Shown here piece by piece: positions 30,577 through 41,737 of a DNA stretch of 48,552 nucleotides (positions within the stretch are counted from its first letter, which is position 1; each line of letters opens with the position of its first letter). A model generated the notes under the pieces. It was not told the origin of the DNA, did no database searches, and was given only the letters and a program-made list of their open reading frames with translations. Position numbers and translations under genes: made by a program. This DNA is from a virus: the UHGV virus genome UHGV-0142349. One strand, written 5' to 3'.

Positions 30577-31524
30577 TTAAATACTCCCCGCGTTATACCA
30601 CGTTCCATTAATGCAATACTGAATTGGCCTTGCCTGAGTTGTATCAATTAATTCATCACGGTTTCCGTTAACTGACCCCGTAACGACATAACCTGACCTG
30701 TCAGACCAGCCGGGACCATTCCATGTCTGAACAGATGACAGACCGCCAAGACGAATACCTGTAATAAACCTTGAGTTACATTCTGCCTGCGTATATGCAC
30801 CAACATCTCCCGCTGATGGCTTACGTGTTGTGGTGTAAATTTCTGACCAGTCAGCTTCGAATCCGTAACCATCACGCGCTGAACGATAAAAAATACCGCC
30901 GTTCCTGTAATTCACACGGAACTGTACGGCAGGGCAACTCCCCGTATTCATATTGAAGTGGAGGATTAATGTCGATGCGCCACCAATATTTGCGTTATAG
31001 ACCCCGCTATTCCAGTTCCAGCCAACAGCTTTATCATTTCCGACAGTGCTTCCTGTTTGCCCTAAAGCAAATGCAGGCTGCTGGTTTTTCGTGTTGTAGT
31101 CTCGTCGCCAGCCAGGAGCATAAGCATCACCATGATTAATATAAGTGAATTGAGCGTTAGTGATTCCGCCACCGCTGGAAGTGCTCGGGGTGGTTACACG
31201 GATGGTCATGGCTCCTTTATTACCCATAACCTCAATAACGCAACCTGCAAGATGAATAGTTCCACAGCCAGTATCGGTAATAATTTTATTATTGCCGTAT
31301 GACCATGAACATTTGCACATCCAGTATGGGTGATTGAATGCCCCTTGAGAATCAAGCCATTCAATCAATTGTGCCGTTGTCCAGTTCCCTGCCCCTGTAC
31401 TAATAGCACTGTGAAAAGCACGACATGCACCAATATTTTTTGTGAAGGTATCTTTTCCAGGAATATCTGCGCCGTTCTGGTTTTTCTGTAATGCGCCAGA
31501 AGCCTTGTTTATCGTTTCCTGCAA
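30577..31524 (-). CDS. alternative tail fiber C-terminal segment
   Basis: N-terminus (M)QETINKASG parallels LQETVNKAG at crossover in the expressed fiber; likely continues into the right repeat with no own start. Confidence 0.65.
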   Translation of the reverse strand: MQETINKASGALQKNQNGADIPGKDTFTKNIGACRAFHSAISTGAGNWTTAQLIEWLDSQGAFNHPYWMCKCSWSYGNNKIITDTGCGTIHLAGCVIEVMGNKGAMTIRVTTPSTSSGGGITNAQFTYINHGDAYAPGWRRDYNTKNQQPAFALGQTGSTVGNDKAVGWNWNSGVYNANIGGASTLILHFNMNTGSCPAVQFRVNYRNGGIFYRSARDGYGFEADWSEIYTTTRKPSAGDVGAYTQAECNSRFITGIRLGGLSSVQTWNGPGWSDRSGYVVTGSVNGNRDELIDTTQARPIQYCINGTWYNAGSI

Positions 31525-31533
31525 ACCGAGGTT
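31505..31533. repeat. right inverted repeat (crossover site) of invertible segment
   Basis: CTTGTTTATCGTTTCCTGCAAACCGAGGT. Confidence 0.75.
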
Positions 31534-31605
31534 TTTGCGAATTGCCTCTGTGTCGTCTGAACGATATTTTTTCCCGCTTTTAGCAACAATCGCGGTTTAG
31601 AAAGT

Positions 31606-32160
31606 ATGCAATATGGTTATGCGAGGGTGTCAACTTTTGACCAGAATTTGGAATTACAACTGGAGGCGCTCAGGAGTTCAGGATGTGACCGGATTTTTGA
31701 AGATAAAATATCCGGTGCTAAATCAAAACGACCAGGGCTTGATAAGCTACTGAAGGTGTTACGGCCGGGCGATACGGTTATTGTCTGGAAGCTGGATCGA
31801 ATGGGGCGTTCTCTGATTCATCTTGTTGATTTACTTAACCATTTTTTATCAAACAACATTGAGTTTATTTCGATTACGGAAGGGATAAAAATTAGCACTT
31901 CAATTGGCCGCTTTGCCTACACGATGCTGAGTGCAGTCGCAGAGATGGAGCGGGAAAATATGATTGAAAGAACGCGTGCAGGATTGGCGGTGGCAAGGGC
32001 TAATGGCAGGATAGGAGGACGCCGCTCAAAATTGGCCCCAGAGCAATGGGAACAGATCGGAAGGCTTATTGCGAATGGTGTTTCACGTAAGCGGATAGCG
32101 ATTATCTTCGATGTTACCTTATCCACGCTTTACCGCAGGTTTCCGGCTGGGAATCATTGA
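31606..32160 (+). CDS. serine recombinase, DNA invertase (Gin/Hin/Pin/Cin family)
   Basis: N-terminal YARVSTFDQNLELQ with catalytic Ser; small size with C-terminal HTH; adjacent to invertible segment. Confidence 0.85.
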   Translation: MQYGYARVSTFDQNLELQLEALRSSGCDRIFEDKISGAKSKRPGLDKLLKVLRPGDTVIVWKLDRMGRSLIHLVDLLNHFLSNNIEFISITEGIKISTSIGRFAYTMLSAVAEMERENMIERTRAGLAVARANGRIGGRRSKLAPEQWEQIGRLIANGVSRKRIAIIFDVTLSTLYRRFPAGNH

Positions 32161-32341
32161 CTGGAGTTAGGCCAGTAGTATGATGCTCGCAAAACGAGAT
32201 CCAATTTAGATCCTTTTACTGGTGGATTATCGTTCGATCAGTGAGAGACTTCGTGCATGACCGAAAGTGTTGTGGTAGAGTTCTCTTAAAACCACGTAAC
32301 GTGGTTATGATTGTGGGTGTCTGGTTGGAAAGCGACCAGAT

Positions 32342-33319
32342 ATGGAAACAAAAAGCCCGCAGATAAATCTGCGGGCTTCTTGCGACATCCACGGAAAACC
32401 AACAATTAACCATGGGCGCCTCGACAACTCCCATTATACGTTGGTTTTCCGTGGACGCAAGAGCGAACATATGGATAGACCAATGCCGTCTCTACGTTCA
32501 GCTTACGTTTGTAATTTGTCGCCGGAGTTCCAGCCTCCAAAGCACCATACGCACAAGCTGCCGCTGGTGTTATCTGATGCTTTACAGCGCATTAATGGTC
32601 GTGATCTTACGTGTGAGGTTGCGTTCTACGTTAATCAACCGTCAGAGCGGAAACGCCGGATAAACGAGCATCGTCGTCGGGCGATTAATGCTGTGATTGC
32701 TGCGATTTTGCACCATGTAAACATCATTTCTAAGCGGGTTCTGGCCAGTGCTGAGGCGTTGGCTGATTTTTGCGGTCTGTCTACCGTATCCGAAGCTGGG
32801 AACAAGTCTATAACGCGCTGTACAAGGGCGTTGTCGCAACTGAAAGCGTTAGGTTTTATTGATTATGAACGTCGCTGGGATCGGGTGAATAAACAGTATT
32901 GGCCAGCGAAAATAGAGATTCGTGATCAACTGCTGGAAACCGTTGGTATTACTGAACAAGCATGGAGACGTGCGGTTAGCCAGAAACTTAATTACTTCAA
33001 TGCGAAGAATAGCGAACGGCTTAAAAAAGCGATAACGGAGGCTGATTATAAGCGTATTGTTATTCAGGAGCAGATGGAGAATGTATGGCGTCAGAGGAAG
33101 ACGGCCAGAGAGATAAAGGCAAAACAGAAAGCAGCGGAGAGAGCTGCGCGTCTTGTTCGGGAAAAGGGAGAGGCCGAACTTCGTCATCAAATCACTAGAG
33201 AGGTTAGCCAGGAATTTGCTGATGGCATGTATCCTGGAGCTGACCTTGCATATTTACGATCCCTCGTTGAGCAGCGTTATAACAGGTTAAGAAAGACTTG
33301 GAAATCACTCCAACATTAA
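32342..33319 (+). CDS. repA: plasmid replication initiator RepA (IncFII RepA1-like)
   Basis: Segment SITRCTRALSQLKALGFIDYE resembles IncFII RepA1; basic C-terminus; real start may be internal ATG 32471 downstream of leader stem-loops. Confidence 0.65.
   Translation: METKSPQINLRASCDIHGKPTINHGRLDNSHYTLVFRGRKSEHMDRPMPSLRSAYVCNLSPEFQPPKHHTHKLPLVLSDALQRINGRDLTCEVAFYVNQPSERKRRINEHRRRAINAVIAAILHHVNIISKRVLASAEALADFCGLSTVSEAGNKSITRCTRALSQLKALGFIDYERRWDRVNKQYWPAKIEIRDQLLETVGITEQAWRRAVSQKLNYFNAKNSERLKKAITEADYKRIVIQEQMENVWRQRKTAREIKAKQKAAERAARLVREKGEAELRHQITREVSQEFADGMYPGADLAYLRSLVEQRYNRLRKTWKSLQH
32346..32455 (-). ncRNA. putative CopA-like antisense RNA in repA leader
   Basis: On minus strand: 15-bp-stem hairpin (32389..32454) then hairpin 32355..32376 followed by TTTTTGTTT. 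Confidence 0.35.
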
Positions 33320-33439
33320 CCCACCTGAATGATGAATCCGGTTTTACCGGAGGATTATCTACGTCGCAATAAAATATCTGTTCAAAAAACAATCTAAATT
33401 AATTTTCTCTAAACCTGAACACAGCAAAAATATCGCCTT

Positions 33440-33600
33440 TACAGGCATCGGCTAATAAAGTTATCCACAGTTTTGATATGTATATGCAAATGGTTTTTTA
33501 TAATAGATGCACTAAACAAATAAATGCAAAATCACTTTCTTTTATTAAGACTTTCTTTATTTAACTTACGCAGGCTTTGCCTGTGAATATGTTCGCCCTT
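33440..33600. promoter_or_regulatory. putative replication origin (DnaA box TTATCCACA at 33461..33469 plus AT-rich tract)
   Basis: Perfect DnaA box about 140 bp downstream of repA stop, then about 120 bp AT-rich DNA. Confidence 0.5.
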
Positions 33601-33950
33601 GCAGCGAGCTAAAGCTCGCGCCGGTTCGAGTCGCTACGCTCAAATATACCTCCTCCGGCACTTGCCGGAGGCATGGAGCAGCCTGATCATCCTTTTCGAA
33701 ACGGCGCGTTTCGAACTATACAAAATCAATTTATATAAGGCCGAAATAAGGCCTACGGCCGGGCTTTGCAGGAGGAAGGGGCGAGCCTTATCAATAAACG
33801 TCGATAAATACGCACACAGTAGCCATCAGAACGCGATAAAACGTAAGAAACATCATGTCCTATTAGACATAGAAAACTTGTCTTATACGCAATGTAGTAA
33901 ATTTCTATTGCCACATAGGAAAAGATTTCCTACCATCGTAGATATAATAA

Positions 33951-34250
33951 ATGGAGATGGTTATGGATAAAGATACTGTTTTAAAAATGTTGAATCCGGC
34001 TTGTTTAAAAAAAGCGGATGAATGGGAATCTCCTACATGTGGAGAAGTTCGGGCAGTCATTGGCCTGACCGGAATGAGCGGCTCGCAGTTGGCCAAAAAA
34101 CTAGGCTTAAAAGATAGTCGCAATGTTCGCAACTGGCAGATGTTAAAGGAGTCCACATCCAGATCCAGCATTCCGTATGCAGCCTGGGCGCTGCTGTGTT
34201 ACTTCGCTGGGTTAGGGTTAATCTTCATTGATAACAAAACAGATGTTTGA
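33951..34250 (+). CDS. hypothetical HTH-containing protein
   Basis: 99 aa; GLTGMSGSQLAKKLGL resembles an HTH. Confidence 0.35.
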   Translation: MEMVMDKDTVLKMLNPACLKKADEWESPTCGEVRAVIGLTGMSGSQLAKKLGLKDSRNVRNWQMLKESTSRSSIPYAAWALLCYFAGLGLIFIDNKTDV

Positions 34251-34537
34251 AACATGCAAATATGAGGTTTGTTATGGAACTTGTACGCAAAACACGCAAA
34301 GAGTTCTTGGACCTGTATCGCATGGGAGCTTTCACTTGTGTTGTGGCTACCCAGGACGAAGTGACAAAAAGCTGGCGGCTTTTTGCTCTCAATAAAAAAG
34401 GGATTGCCGTTTTCATTGAAAAAGCCCGTGGTGGTATCCGCGAATGGGCGGGATTGAATTATGTGGCTGATTTTTGCGCAGCTATGGGGATTCGTCGCTG
34501 GGAAGTCCATATGCCAGGAGTAAAGTCACAAAAATAG
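34247..34537 (+). CDS. hypothetical protein
   Basis: 96 aa ORF overlapping stop of previous gene. Confidence 0.35.
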   Translation: MKHANMRFVMELVRKTRKEFLDLYRMGAFTCVVATQDEVTKSWRLFALNKKGIAVFIEKARGGIREWAGLNYVADFCAAMGIRRWEVHMPGVKSQK

Positions 34538-34781
34538 GGCTTTCGCGTCGAAAATGAGGCGAAACTGAAAACGAGATTTCATTAACAAATAAGCAACATA
34601 AAAAACGGTGGAAAACGCCCAGGAAAACATGATCTTTTGAGCGGATTTTTTAGATCCGACAATGAACGGTGATCCGGTGGTGCCGATAACGTCCATTATG
34701 TTAAATAGCCCCGTTTTTCTTGAAATTATAACTCACAGGTTATATAGTTAGTGATATAAACTACAGGTTATAGGATTGAGC

Positions 34782-35129
34782 ATGTGGACGGTACTTTTTA
34801 GCCAGCGATTTGACGACTGGCTAAATGAGCAAGAAGACGCTCTTCAGGAAAAGGTTTTGGCTGATTTGAAAAAGCTACAGGTTTACGGACCTGAGTTACC
34901 TAGGCCATATGCCGATACCGTAAAAGGTTCTCGGTACAAAAATATGAAAGAGCTTCGCGTTCAGTTTTCTGGCCGTCCGATAAGAGCCTTTTATGCGTTC
35001 GATCCGATTCGCCGGGCCATCGTTCTTTGTGCAGGAGACAAAAGTAACGATAAGCGGTTTTATGAAAAACTGGTGCGTATAGCTGAGGATGAGTTTGCAG
35101 CACATCTGAACACACTGGAGAGCAAGTAA
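34782..35129 (+). CDS. type II toxin, RelE/ParE superfamily (HigB/Gp49-like)
   Basis: Gp49-like pattern (ELR..., RAFYAFDPIRRAIVLCAGDK..RFY); precedes and overlaps an XRE-HTH gene; start at ATG 34782 (track uses TTG 34776). Confidence 0.65.
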   Translation: MWTVLFSQRFDDWLNEQEDALQEKVLADLKKLQVYGPELPRPYADTVKGSRYKNMKELRVQFSGRPIRAFYAFDPIRRAIVLCAGDKSNDKRFYEKLVRIAEDEFAAHLNTLESK

Positions 35130-35428
35130 TGAGAACATTAGATGAGGCGATTGCCAGCCGTTCACCGGAAAGCCAGGCGCGAATTAAAGAAATGGCAGAT
35201 GAGATGATTCTTGAGGTCGGCTTGCAGATGATGCGTGAAGAACTCCAGTTATCACAAAAACAGGTTGCTGAGGCGATGGGTATAAGCCAGCCAGCAGTAA
35301 CAAAGCTGGAGCAGCGCGGAAATGATTTAAAGCTGGCGACATTAAAGCGTTACGTTGAAGCTATGGGAGGCAAATTAAGCCTGGATGTTGAGCTTCCCAC
35401 AGGAAAACGAATAGCGTTTAACATCTGA
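35129..35428 (+). CDS. XRE-family HTH antitoxin (HigA-like)
   Basis: HTH LSQKQVAEAMGISQPAVTKLE; start overlaps toxin stop (TAATG). Confidence 0.65.
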   Translation: MRTLDEAIASRSPESQARIKEMADEMILEVGLQMMREELQLSQKQVAEAMGISQPAVTKLEQRGNDLKLATLKRYVEAMGGKLSLDVELPTGKRIAFNI

Positions 35429-35443
35429 TCAGAACGAATGATA

Positions 35444-35470
35444 AGCCCCTGTTGCAAAGGGGCTTTTTTG
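35444..35470 (+). terminator. rho-independent terminator
   Basis: agcccct-gttgcaa-aggggct then TTTTTT. Confidence 0.6.
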
Positions 35471-35478
35471 TGCTCACA

Positions 35479-35591
35479 GAATTATATAATTATAGATTTA
35501 TATAAAAAGTGCTTTACATGTGGGAAAAAATTTCCTAAGGTTATACCCGAAACCGAGCGATACCCGCCCTGGTTAAACCGGAGATAACCCG
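35479..35591 (+). promoter_or_regulatory. promoter-leader cassette copy B
   Basis: Near-identical to copies at 3407 and 45065; -35 TTTACA, -10 TAAGGT, conserved leader with GGAGA SD. Confidence 0.6.
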
Positions 35592-39893: not shown

Positions 39894-40016
39894 ATGAAAA
39901 AATACTGTATGTGTATTTTTATCGTTGTTACTGGAGCTTTGTTTACGCCACATGGGGAGGGTTGGAAGATTACTGATAACGCTCTGAATGTGACGATAAA
40001 CATTAGCAGCAAGTAG
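39894..40016 (+). CDS. small hydrophobic protein (40 aa), candidate type I toxin-like peptide
   Basis: MKKYCMCIFIVVTGALFTPHGEGWKITDNALNVTINISSK; followed by terminator at 40022..40045. Confidence 0.3.
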   Translation: MKKYCMCIFIVVTGALFTPHGEGWKITDNALNVTINISSK

Positions 40017-40021
40017 CGATT

Positions 40022-40045
40022 AGGCCCCTTCGGGGGCCTTTTTTA
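40022..40045 (+). terminator. rho-independent terminator
   Basis: ggcccc-ttcg-ggggcc then TTTTTT. Confidence 0.65.
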
Positions 40046-40054
40046 TGGTTGAAT

Positions 40055-40237
40055 TTAAACGCTGGAGCGCATTAAGCCTTTCAGAACTGCTTCACGTACC
40101 CATTCTGGTCTGGTGGATAGCAGGGCAAATAAGCGGCCAGCTTGCAGCCGTTTGAGGTCGGTTAGACGAGTTTTCAGTAACCGTGTATATTGTTGTTCGG
40201 ACATAACAAATTCCCCTTGTTGTGTCGCGACGGCCAA
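40055..40237 (-). CDS. hypothetical protein
   Basis: 60 aa ORF downstream of parG-like gene. Confidence 0.3.
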   Translation of the reverse strand: MAVATQQGEFVMSEQQYTRLLKTRLTDLKRLQAGRLFALLSTRPEWVREAVLKGLMRSSV

Positions 40238-40266: not shown

Positions 40267-40515
40267 TTACTTCTGGTTGTATTGAGCCTTGAGTAACTCA
40301 AAAGATTTTGTCAGCACTTCTTTCAATGACATATCCATTGAGCTGGCGAACGTTTTGTACTCGCGTTTAAATTCAGGGTCGACGTTAAACGCCATTTGTG
40401 CCCCACCTGATTTGGTTCTGGCTGGCGTTTCAGTCGGGTCGAAAACCTGCGGTTGTTCGATCGATGGCGGTACGCCTTTGCTGTTCTTCTTTGGTGGTTT
40501 TGATGGTGCGGCCAT
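40267..40515 (-). CDS. partition protein, ParG-like (ribbon-helix-helix centromere-binding)
   Basis: 82 aa, basic flexible N-terminus, directly downstream of ParA-like ATPase gene (type Ib layout). Confidence 0.5.
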   Translation of the reverse strand: MAAPSKPPKKNSKGVPPSIEQPQVFDPTETPARTKSGGAQMAFNVDPEFKREYKTFASSMDMSLKEVLTKSFELLKAQYNQK

Positions 40516-40563: not shown

Positions 40564-41212
40564 CGGCAGTAGTCAGAGCCTCAAGCTGGTTGATAATCCC
40601 CTGAATAACGTCGTCTGCCTTTTTGCGTGGCGCAACGTATGAGCATTCAATGAGGCTTAAGCCCTTATCCTGAGCTTTGCTCAGAGCTGGCTTGTGGGGA
40701 ATGTACTTATCGACAACAAAGTATGGCGTATTAGCCAGGTACTCTTGGGCTTCAATGTAGTCGGCTTCGTTTTCAGCCGCGCCTGAGAACACCATGCAAA
40801 TTTTCTTGATTGGCACACCCTTTTTAACGATGCCATGAGCTGTGTTAACGGTGGTTTCCAGGTCATCGGTAGAGAATCTGGTTGGCAAAATAACCATATC
40901 CAGAAATTCAGAGAGCTTCGGTACTGATTCAGATGCGTAGGCACCGCCATCGACGATAACCAGGTCGTATACTTCTGATTCGATGATTTTCTGGACTTGT
41001 GATGGCGTGCCGCACGGCTGCGCCGCGATTGCAGGTTCGATATTGTTGGCCATTCTGCGTTGTACCCAACGCGTTACCGTTCCGTTAAGCACATCCATAT
41101 CGATCAGGCATACATTCCAGCCGGCCTTTGCATAAGCAACTGCTAAAGCACGGGCAATTGTTGATTTGGTTACGCCGCCTTTTCCGTTGAAAATACCTAC
41201 AGAGATAGTCAT
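40559..41212 (-). CDS. partition ATPase ParA (small ParA/ParF-like, Walker type)
   Basis: Deviant Walker A GKGGVTKST; start at ATG 41212 (SD GGAG upstream) rather than track start 41227. Confidence 0.7.
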   Translation of the reverse strand: MTISVGIFNGKGGVTKSTIARALAVAYAKAGWNVCLIDMDVLNGTVTRWVQRRMANNIEPAIAAQPCGTPSQVQKIIESEVYDLVIVDGGAYASESVPKLSEFLDMVILPTRFSTDDLETTVNTAHGIVKKGVPIKKICMVFSGAAENEADYIEAQEYLANTPYFVVDKYIPHKPALSKAQDKGLSLIECSYVAPRKKADDVIQGIINQLEALTTAA

Positions 41213-41235
41213 TTGTCGAGACTCCATGTGTTTGG

Positions 41236-41340
41236 TTATATAATTATATAAATCTATATTTATAGAACGAGGTAAGCATAACCAACTTTTTGGCGGATGA
41301 AAAGCGTTTTATATAATTATATAAATCTATAATCATATAA
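41236..41340. repeat. two direct copies of AT-rich motif upstream of parA (candidate centromere/operator)
   Basis: TTATATAATTATATAAATCTATA at 41236-41258 and 41308-41330. Confidence 0.55.
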
Positions 41341-41362
41341 GCGGGCGTTAGCCCGCTTTCAG

Positions 41363-41737
41363 TCAGAGGTCAGCTATCGTTGATATCAGTTGATTTGCTA
41401 GCTGTCGCTGTTTACGTGAGAGTGTTAGAGCAGCTTCTGAGCGGTCGCTAAGAGGGGTGTTTTCATCAAGAATCATGAGGCATACAGAAATAATAGCCCT
41501 GTTATATGCCATCAATGGCTGGCACAGCTTCGATACCGCTGGCACATCGTATTGTAAGGCCGTTTTGAGGCAGACTTTTTGTTCTGATGCCAGATGAAGG
41601 ATAGATTCTATCCAGTCGATATCTTTTTCATTATCAATGATTTGGCATAACATACACTCAATCGCTATGTTCAACGCTTGGATTTCGATTCCAGCAGTGA
41701 TCAGAGTTTCGTTTTTATTGGCTGTATGTAATTCCAT
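41363..41737 (-). CDS. hypothetical protein
   Basis: 124 aa ORF between repressor and parA. Confidence 0.4.
   Translation of the reverse strand: MELHTANKNETLITAGIEIQALNIAIECMLCQIIDNEKDIDWIESILHLASEQKVCLKTALQYDVPAVSKLCQPLMAYNRAIISVCLMILDENTPLSDRSEAALTLSRKQRQLANQLISTIADL

Follow-up and report, generated by a model that had tools for sequence, protein, structure and literature searches.

A hairpin cluster as the probable leading-strand initiation zone of an IncFII-family origin on a phage-plasmid

Just past the putative replication origin of the virus genome UHGV-0142349 (48,552 nt; this whole stretch of DNA is called the window here), a dense group of GC-rich palindromes raises the question of what these repeats do, on which strand they do it and what reads them. 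A sequence-only reading of this DNA had proposed that they act as single-strand initiation (ssi) signals or as protein-binding sites. The comparative analysis described here suggests that the region 33569-33795 serves a theta origin of the IncFII family, on a phage-plasmid, as its zone of leading-strand initiation, an assignment that we hold to be probable, and that the hairpin cluster most likely signals to the host primase the point at which leading-strand synthesis begins. This kind of signal is already known as the G-site region of the IncFII family; new are its phage-plasmid carrier and, possibly, a conserved module, termed block 1, that has so far been under-described. From left to right, the region contains the following elements.

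33569-33585, - strand: hairpin 0, CGCAGGC TTT GCCTGTG, bordering the AT-rich region on its right
33594-33628, - strand: block 1, CGCCCTTGCAG-(hairpin 1, 33604-33619)-GCCGGTTCG
33604-33619: hairpin 1, GCGAGCTAAAGCTCGC, that is GCGAGCT-AA-AGCTCGC, with a 7-bp stem and a 2-nt loop
33631-33641, no strand assigned: conserved spacer TCGCTACGCTC, common to window-type relatives from Salmonella, Pantoea, Serratia and Erwinia
33647-33671, - strand: TACCTCC lead with hairpin 2, homologous to the unit "TACCTCCC + hairpin"
33652-33671, - strand: hairpin 2, CCTCCGGCA ct TGCCGGAGG, with a 9-bp stem; it contains the palindrome CTCCGGCACTTGCCGGAG (33653-33670)
33695-33715, no strand assigned: hairpin 3, TTCGAAACGGCGCGTTTCGAA, that is TTCGAAACG gcg CGTTTCGAA, with a 9-bp stem and a 3-nt loop; lineage-specific
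33739-33760, no strand assigned: hairpin 4, GGCCGAAATAAGGCCTACGGCC, GGCC..GGCC TAC GGCC, with 4-bp stems only; weak and lineage-specific
33761-33795, - strand: block 2, a putative primase start, reading 5'-CCTCCTGCAAAGCCC-3' from 33775 to 33761, with the predicted start at T33770

The sequence-only reading had quoted four palindromes and described several short hairpins within about 200 bp, directly past an AT-rich origin region. All four (GCGAGCTAAAGCTCGC, CTCCGGCACTTGCCGGAG, TTCGAAACGGCGCGTTTCGAA and GGCCGAAATAAGGCCTACGGCC) were located, as three perfect hairpins and one weaker GGCC hairpin between 33604 and 33760, and the cluster does lie 3' of the only perfect DnaA box and an AT-rich stretch. 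The cluster is non-random: 33590-33790 contains three perfect hairpins (stem at least 7 bp, loop 2-8 nt) with stems of 7-9 bp, while dinucleotide shuffles gave a mean of 0.12 such hairpins per 200 bp and three or more in none of 2000 cases. Secondary-structure prediction, which had been suggested as a check, showed that the - strand of 33560-33800 folds better than its shuffles (z = -2.7), and the DNA fold of hairpins 2 and 3 alone reached a z of about -4. Only one 200-bp stretch of the whole window, at about 41140-41430, is denser in hairpins. At 41236-41340 two 32-nt AT-rich direct repeats (TTATATAATTATATAAATCTATA...) are found 73 bp apart, together with many overlapping palindromes; these repeats look operator-like and of a different nature than the cluster.

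Which strand folds can be read from the positions at which the stems depart from Watson-Crick pairing. On the + strand, the non-Watson-Crick positions of hairpin 2 (34 distinct stems, 385 Watson-Crick cells) comprised 51 A·C and six G·T combinations, and both mismatches of hairpin 1 as well as most of those of hairpin 0 were A·C on this strand. The wobble positions differ between lineages, with about 20 distinct stem variants against 3. As an A·C mismatch on the + strand corresponds to a G·T wobble on the - strand, the fold appears to be selected on the - strand, and these alignments indicate that hairpins 0, 1 and 2 are maintained there as single-stranded nucleic acid. The same asymmetry argues that duplex protein sites and a + strand RNA are excluded for these three hairpins. 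The - strand is presumably also the leading-strand template, for which R1 is the basis, and the GC skew is compatible with this: on the + strand G exceeds C in all 2-kb bins of the 48.5 kb but one, with an overall skew of +0.125 and no sign switch, which fits unidirectional rightward replication. The exceptional bin, 30-32 kb, holds tail-fibre genes on the - strand.

Pairing is preserved while the sequence of the stems changes. An alignment of 56 sequences covering the block 1 and hairpin region of IncFII-family replicons showed covariation in the stem of hairpin 1, with GC 34 and AU 19 at one pair and AU 37, GC 10 and CG 8 at the next; 37 cells were changed on both sides, and the observed score was reached in none of 500 shuffles. 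RNAalifold extends this stem into the conserved flanks, where a compensatory G-C to A-T change is found in the Pantoea lineage. A Salmonella plasmid that is 75% identical to the window carries a compensatory change in hairpin 1 (GCGGAC..GTCCGC) and keeps all four stems of hairpins 1-4 with changed loops. The position of hairpin 0 is occupied by a hairpin in all lineages, with differing sequences such as GCCTGCCC tgt GGACAGGC or, in R100, CTGTCC TGT GGACAG. The unit "TACCTCCC + hairpin", to which hairpin 2 belongs, is present in all IncFII-family members, including R100 and ColIb-P9. In place of the spacer 33631-33641 other lineages have a small hairpin.

Hairpins 3 and 4 are confined to three window-type lineages. 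Among the three window-type variants the stem of hairpin 3 (DNA fold z = -4.0) is invariant and its loop variable, and it is not found in more distant relatives; hairpin 4 is kept as AGGCCT(A/T)CGGCC with a loop change in two window-type relatives (L127, L128). A RepA-based search of viral contigs retrieved no variants beyond the three known lineages. A long-range pairing between the flanks of block 1 and block 2 (TCGCCC/GGGCGA) was also considered and rejected, as it is not kept in L128.

These data bear directly on the second role that had been proposed for the palindromes, that of protein-binding sites. They would then be duplex-DNA sites for dimeric proteins, either as an operator of the small helix-turn-helix (HTH)-like protein of 95 aa encoded just 3' of them or as sites at which RepA or a host factor limits unwinding. 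Hairpin 3 would suit such a function, being a perfect 9-bp inverted repeat with a 3-bp spacer whose arms are invariant in the three lineage variants, and the flanks of block 1 are conserved in sequence beyond pairing alone. However, hairpins 0, 1 and 2 vary in sequence yet keep their pairing, the opposite of what a protein operator would do, and strand-asymmetric mismatches are meaningless for duplex DNA. Moreover, hairpins 0-2 are kept beside unrelated downstream genes and together with RepA proteins that are 28-40% identical, and the likely operator of the downstream gene is another palindrome inside its promoter (33916-33932). We therefore regard duplex binding as an unlikely function of the palindromes in general, while for hairpins 3 and 4 a role as operator sites is possible.

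The strongest primase-start motif of the region (33761-33775, within block 2) was not among the palindromes quoted by the sequence-only reading. The comparison with known ssi and G-site signals, which that reading had recommended, revealed it as closely resembling, on the - strand, the primase start motif of the G4/alpha3 type; the + strand of block 2 reads GGGCTTTGCAGGAGGAAGGGGCGAGCCTTATCAAT, where a G-rich run and TATCAAT (33789-33795) come after the start motif. In G4, it is the T of a CTG that serves as the primer start, and this CTG lies 3' of three stem-loops, which create regions free of SSB, the protein that binds single-stranded DNA (PMC6783573). The G4 record, the only one among those of G4, alpha3 and St-1 in which a primer start is annotated, places the start of the complementary strand at the CTG of ...CCCTACTGCAAAGCC, and alpha3 and St-1 read ...CCCTCCTGCTAAGCCC at the same place. 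Block 2 is identical to the annotated G4 start CTGCAAAGCC at 10 of 10 positions and to the primer start region of alpha3 and St-1 at 14 of 15, and the start context CCTNCTGC(A/T)AAGCC with the template 5'-CTG-3' is present from 33775 to 33761. The number of chance matches to the motif expected in the whole window is 0.06. A BLAST search with G4oric against phages yielded only close relatives of G4, and alpha3 and St-1 were compared by accession. The predicted primer, pppAGGAGGAAGGGG..., would be extended rightwards.

A corresponding block was found in R100 (40386-40430) and ColIb-P9 (2197-2241), with the sequence GGTATGG(T/C)(C/T)T(G/A)GCAGGGCTGGGGATGGG...CTATCAAT, which we take to be the mapped primase G site of these plasmids. 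Its core is a CCCTGC(C/T)A(G/A)(A/G)CC block (R100 40386-40410, ColIb-P9 2199-2226); a first guess that had placed the R100 G site at CAGTAC (40266), by the likeness of TACTG to G4, was dropped for this better match. In R1, primase alone reportedly starts the leading strand at a G site that lies some 400 bp downstream of oriR, and plasmid and phage G sites are said to have limited homology near the primer start. In R100 the minimal oriR, if counted from the DnaA box, measures 188 bp, and the CTG, with three stem-loops on its 5' side, follows 362 bp past the end of oriR. Some 27 further loci of the IncFII family have the block 2 core at a distance of 165-590 nt from block 1, on its right; they were detected with a search pattern that partly imposes the motif found there and in R100 and ColIb-P9. 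A CTG-anchored alignment of phages and plasmids gave the template motif (C-rich)CC-CTG-C(T/A)AAGCC. It is because of the sequence identity with the start regions of G4, alpha3 and St-1 and with the R100/ColIb-P9 block that a DnaG start is predicted at block 2.

The likeness to the plasmid G site of R1/R100 and ColIb-P9 extends beyond the start itself. In both cases the replicon encodes a RepA of the PF02387 family, and with respect to repA, the DnaA box and the AT-rich region the site does not differ in side or strand; both have the core GGCTT(A/T)GCAGG, a G-rich run and (C)TATCAAT, with the template CC-CTG-C(T/A)AAGCC, and in both the predicted primer is purine-rich and points away from repA. 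In contrast to R100, where the distance is about 385 nt, block 2 of the window lies about 170 nt from block 1; the R100-type left flank AGCGGGTTAT and right-hand AACCGGCTNCGCCGG hairpin are not present in the window, which has no significant stem-loops 5' of the CTG and carries hairpins 3 and 4 on the other side. With G4oric of G4, alpha3 and St-1 the window shares the CTG start with the flanks CCT(N)CTGC(A/T)AAGCC, the C-rich tract 5' of CTG and a cluster of three stable hairpins on the same strand, which lie 5' of the start if counted from the CTG of block 1. In G4, stem-loop I is immediately 5' of the best-matching CTG, whereas the window has a 4-bp AAGG/CCTT remnant there, and G4 packages a single-stranded genome, while the window contains a duplex plasmid origin that would be exposed by a helicase. 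Homology thus supports the ssi-signal proposal, as the block 2 motif is common to R100 and ColIb-P9 and two of the palindromes belong to a covarying, strand-specific and family-wide module.

Single-stranded hairpins could also serve a different loading pathway, in which they form a phiX174-type primosome assembly site (PAS, read by PriA/n') and PriA loads DnaB and primase on the displaced strand. Stable hairpins selected on one DNA strand beside an unwinding region would be expected of such a site, and block 1, which is without the pyrimidine-rich start context of G sites, could be read by another host protein. Against this, no AAGCGG-type n' consensus is present on either strand of 33300-34000, and block 2 closely matches primase start sites. 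In R1-type replicons DnaB is loaded by RepA, DnaA and DnaC at the origin, in which case a PriA site would be unneeded here. Like the window, phiX174 n'/PAS and ssiA/ssiB of RSF1010 represent hairpin-dependent single-strand initiation signals beside plasmid origins, but their readers are PriA or a plasmid primase, RepB', and not DnaG alone, and no RepB'-type primase is encoded in the origin region of the window. The ssi sites of RSF1010 are paired 40-nt inverted repeats within oriV (PMC8567376). A PriA-dependent site is rather improbable on these grounds.

Even less probable is a function of the hairpins in RNA, which could make them part of a small RNA, or terminators or insulators that shield the origin from transcription. 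A leftward RNA would be just as compatible with the tolerance of the - strand for G·T wobbles, and in a consensus scan hairpin 2 was marginally terminator-like on this strand. However, no promoter-like site was found on the - strand of 33250-34050, and the open reading frames (ORFs) annotated by PGAP in relatives from the cluster to about 36 kb all point rightward. The T-run after hairpin 2 is marginal, and relatives have GAGGTA... without a T-run after this stem; on the - strand, hairpin 0 and hairpin 1 both lack a T-run behind the stem. Beyond this marginal case, the combination of a GC-rich hairpin and a direct T-run that marks an intrinsic terminator was not seen in the cluster. An RNA from the + strand is excluded by the A·C mismatches, and an Rfam scan of 31500-35500 gave no family match in the hairpin cluster.

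That the region instead encodes a protein, with the palindromes being incidental, can be dismissed with near certainty: the overlapping ORF, which the sequence-only reading had already called spurious, is an open frame of 123 codons, but it has no Pfam family, no coding sequence over the hairpin cluster is annotated by RefSeq PGAP or in phage records, the frame carries 1-nt indels in the Salmonella homologue and is shortened to 64 aa and 43 aa in relatives, and conservation across it tracks stems and motifs and not codons, so that the search for a supported gene over the cluster found none and the comparative data refute the coding reading.

33599-33970, + strand: spurious 123-aa ORF with a TTG start

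Besides the primase start at block 2, the region contains block 1, which is far better conserved than the classical G site. Its conservation is at least 90% in the 56 aligned replicons, which have very different RepA proteins. A pattern scan covering one genome per species found 57 distinct versions or loci in Enterobacterales contigs, including Y. pestis pCD1; wherever a RepA match was found, block 1 was located 3' of repA and on the repA strand, at a distance of 286-292 nt from window-type repA genes and of 384-400 nt from those repA genes that encode a protein with 75-80% identity to RepA1 of R100. In a plasmid BLAST with 33560-33830 (E <= 0.01), 222 records matched some part of the query. 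Outside the window's own lineage the matches cover little beyond block 1, and in distant IncFII plasmids of Pantoea and Serratia only CCGCCCTTGCAG-hairpin-GCCGGTTCG is common. High-GC pattern matches (Streptomyces, Solirubrobacterales and others) were rejected as chance, as they have neither the CCGCCCTT flank nor a RepA, and the metagenome pattern CGGTTCGN{2,6}TCGCTNNGCTC likewise gave, among the matches listed, chance matches only, none of them with block 1. A promoter reading of the conserved GATAATG before block 1 was also discarded: a -35 box is missing, and a + strand RNA is incompatible with the A·C mismatches.

At 84% identity, block 1 and the TCGCT..GCTC spacer after it (query 35-82) also occur in many plasmids of clinical Enterobacterales (Klebsiella, Enterobacter and Citrobacter) that are mobilizable and about 43.6 kb in size, indicating that the module has spread well beyond phage-plasmids. 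These 35 near-invariant nucleotides are retained although the accompanying RepA proteins share no more than 28-40% identity, which suggests that block 1 is read by a protein of the host and not by RepA. On the - strand, hairpin 1 is directly adjoined at its 3' end by a 5'-CTG-3' (33604 to 33602), and a second CTGCAAGG is present in block 1 (33604 to 33597). The geometry is G4-like, with this CTG 3' of hairpins 1, 2 and 3, all of which lie within 115 nt on its 5' side. Possible roles of block 1 are a second primase entry site, with the start T as a bulge, or a positioning signal for helicase or primosome.

In the alignment the place of block 1 and hairpin 1 is empty in R100, while hairpins 0 and 2 are kept. 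In the R100 record (39996-40121) about 50 nt are missing and hairpins 0 and 2 are joined through ...ACAGATATG directly followed by CACCTCCC. Nearly all other IncFII-family replicons carry this segment of about 50 nt. Its loss looks like a deletion in the lineage of the model plasmid R100, and R1 is probably likewise without block 1. Block 1 could have gone unnoticed so far because R100, and probably R1, deleted it. That block 1 and hairpins 0 and 2 together form a previously unrecognised single-stranded DNA element of most IncFII-family origins, which a host replication protein would read in a sequence-specific manner on the displaced template of the leading strand, is offered as a tentative proposal, held with far less confidence than the assignment of the initiation zone.

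The origin in which these elements are embedded comprises three further features.

32471-33319, + strand: repA, initiator of the IncFII RepA family (Pfam PF02387, E = 7.9e-44)
33461-33469, + strand: DnaA box TTATCCACA, the left end of the origin and the sole perfect DnaA box of the 48.5 kb
33470-33568, no strand assigned: conserved repeats of the ATGCAAA type, as candidates for RepA boxes, with an AT-rich region that is the presumed unwinding element

In RefSeq relatives the product of repA is annotated as RepA, and it is 40% identical to RepA1 of R100 over the core. The same DnaA box is also found 3' of repA in R100 and ColIb-P9. The AT-rich stretch after the box has a GC content of 0.36, and 33470-33568 hardly changes from the window to the Salmonella relative with its 75% identity; its roles as RepA boxes and unwinding element are presumed by analogy, the origins of R1 and IncB being the model. 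Because of the PF02387 repA, the DnaA box and AT-rich region 3' of it and the R100/ColIb-P9-like layout, the replicon is assigned on sequence grounds to the IncFII-family (R1/R100-type) theta replicons. The order of elements agrees with that of IncFII-family origins (R1/R100 oriR, pCD1/pYV ori, IncI1/IncB): repA, a post-repA hairpin, the DnaA box, repeated initiator boxes, the AT-rich region, hairpin 0, (block 1/hairpin 1), TACCTCC-hairpin 2 and the G-site block, with an antisense-RNA-like structure 5' of repA. The window differs from R100 in its RepA, in its initiator boxes, which are of the ATGCAAA type, and in having block 1 and hairpin 1. Furthermore, in contrast to the model plasmids of the family, the carrier is a 48.5-kb phage-plasmid: 59 near-identical records are non-mobilizable E. 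coli plasmids of about 48 kb, and near-identical sequences have also been deposited as the Yersinia myophages vB_YpM_39/41/44, which identifies these plasmids as phage-plasmids.

Several observations weigh against placing leading-strand initiation here. The search pattern for block 2 partly presupposes its motif, and priming activity, start site and replication direction are deduced from sequence. The - strand 5' of the block 2 CTG (33755-33960) forms no significant stem-loops (z = -0.15), and the hairpin cluster is on the 3' side of this CTG, while the stem-loops of G4 and R100 are on the 5' side. The GC-skew support is confounded by gene orientation, as most genes point the same way. For hairpins 3 and 4 the number of variants is too small for covariation to be seen, and hairpin 3 is a perfect 9-3-9 palindrome, as a dimer-binding operator would be. 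Block 1 is without the pyrimidine-rich start context of known G sites, its predicted primer is not purine-rich, and R100 replicates without it.

Further elements were observed around the replicon. Just 5' of repA, the - strand of 32335-32470 contains an extremely stable structure, in which a GC hairpin with a T-run comes after a stem-loop of 20 bp; its RNA fold has -70.3 kcal/mol (z = -9.4). In an Rfam search of this segment no family covered the structure, with only a sub-threshold Thr_leader hit of 31.9 bits. In appearance it resembles a control RNA of the CopA/Inc type, antisense to the repA leader. Located 18 nt past the repA stop, the hairpin TCCGGT-TTT-ACCGGA (33337-33351) is kept with a loop change in the Salmonella relative and presumably stands at the place of the CIS/terminator element between repA and origin in R1 and IncI/IncB. 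To the left of the replicon, a Hin/Cin-type serine invertase (31606-32160; Resolvase and HTH_7) adjoins a tail-fibre-like ORF on the opposite strand (30577-31524), which suggests an invertible host-range segment (30577-32160) directly beside the plasmid replicon. To the right, two small conserved ORFs without Pfam match (33963-34250 and 34274-34537) lie between the origin and a pair of RelE/ParE(HigB)-type toxin and HTH antitoxin (34776-35428, about 1 kb 3' of the origin, according to the annotation of relatives). A sigma-70 promoter (TTGCCA, 17 nt, TACCAT) is predicted at 33908-33936 for the first of these ORFs, and the palindrome TAGGAAA-AGA-TTTCCTA (33916-33932), which lies between its hexamers and is kept in the Salmonella relative, is probably an autoregulatory operator.

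Leading-strand initiation at this origin may proceed as follows. By analogy with R1, RepA and DnaA would open the AT-rich region just to the right of the DnaA box, and DnaB would unwind the DNA rightwards, away from repA, so that the displaced - strand becomes single-stranded. On this strand hairpins would form, with hairpins 0, 1 and 2 being family-wide and hairpins 3 and 4 lineage-specific, and, as at the G4 origin, they might keep SSB away from the primase entry site or phase it there. DnaG would then start the leading-strand primer at the T of 5'-CTG-3' in CCTCCTGCAAAGCCC (T33770), and synthesis would proceed away from repA. Block 1, hairpin 1 and the abutting CTG would constitute a second and much more conserved single-strand element, with a host protein as its probable reader. 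This element might serve as an alternative or auxiliary site of priming or loading, and R100 can dispense with it.

If correct, this assignment places the leading-strand start signal in a widespread group of phage-plasmids of about 48 kb from E. coli and Salmonella, which have also been isolated as Yersinia phages, and would be useful for the annotation of minimal replicons, the building of vectors and the development of curing tools. The strand-asymmetric wobble can indicate which DNA strand of an origin folds and thus may provide a cheap computational readout of replication polarity. If the proposal for block 1 holds true, IncFII-type origins would have a second priming or loading signal that is recognised by the host.

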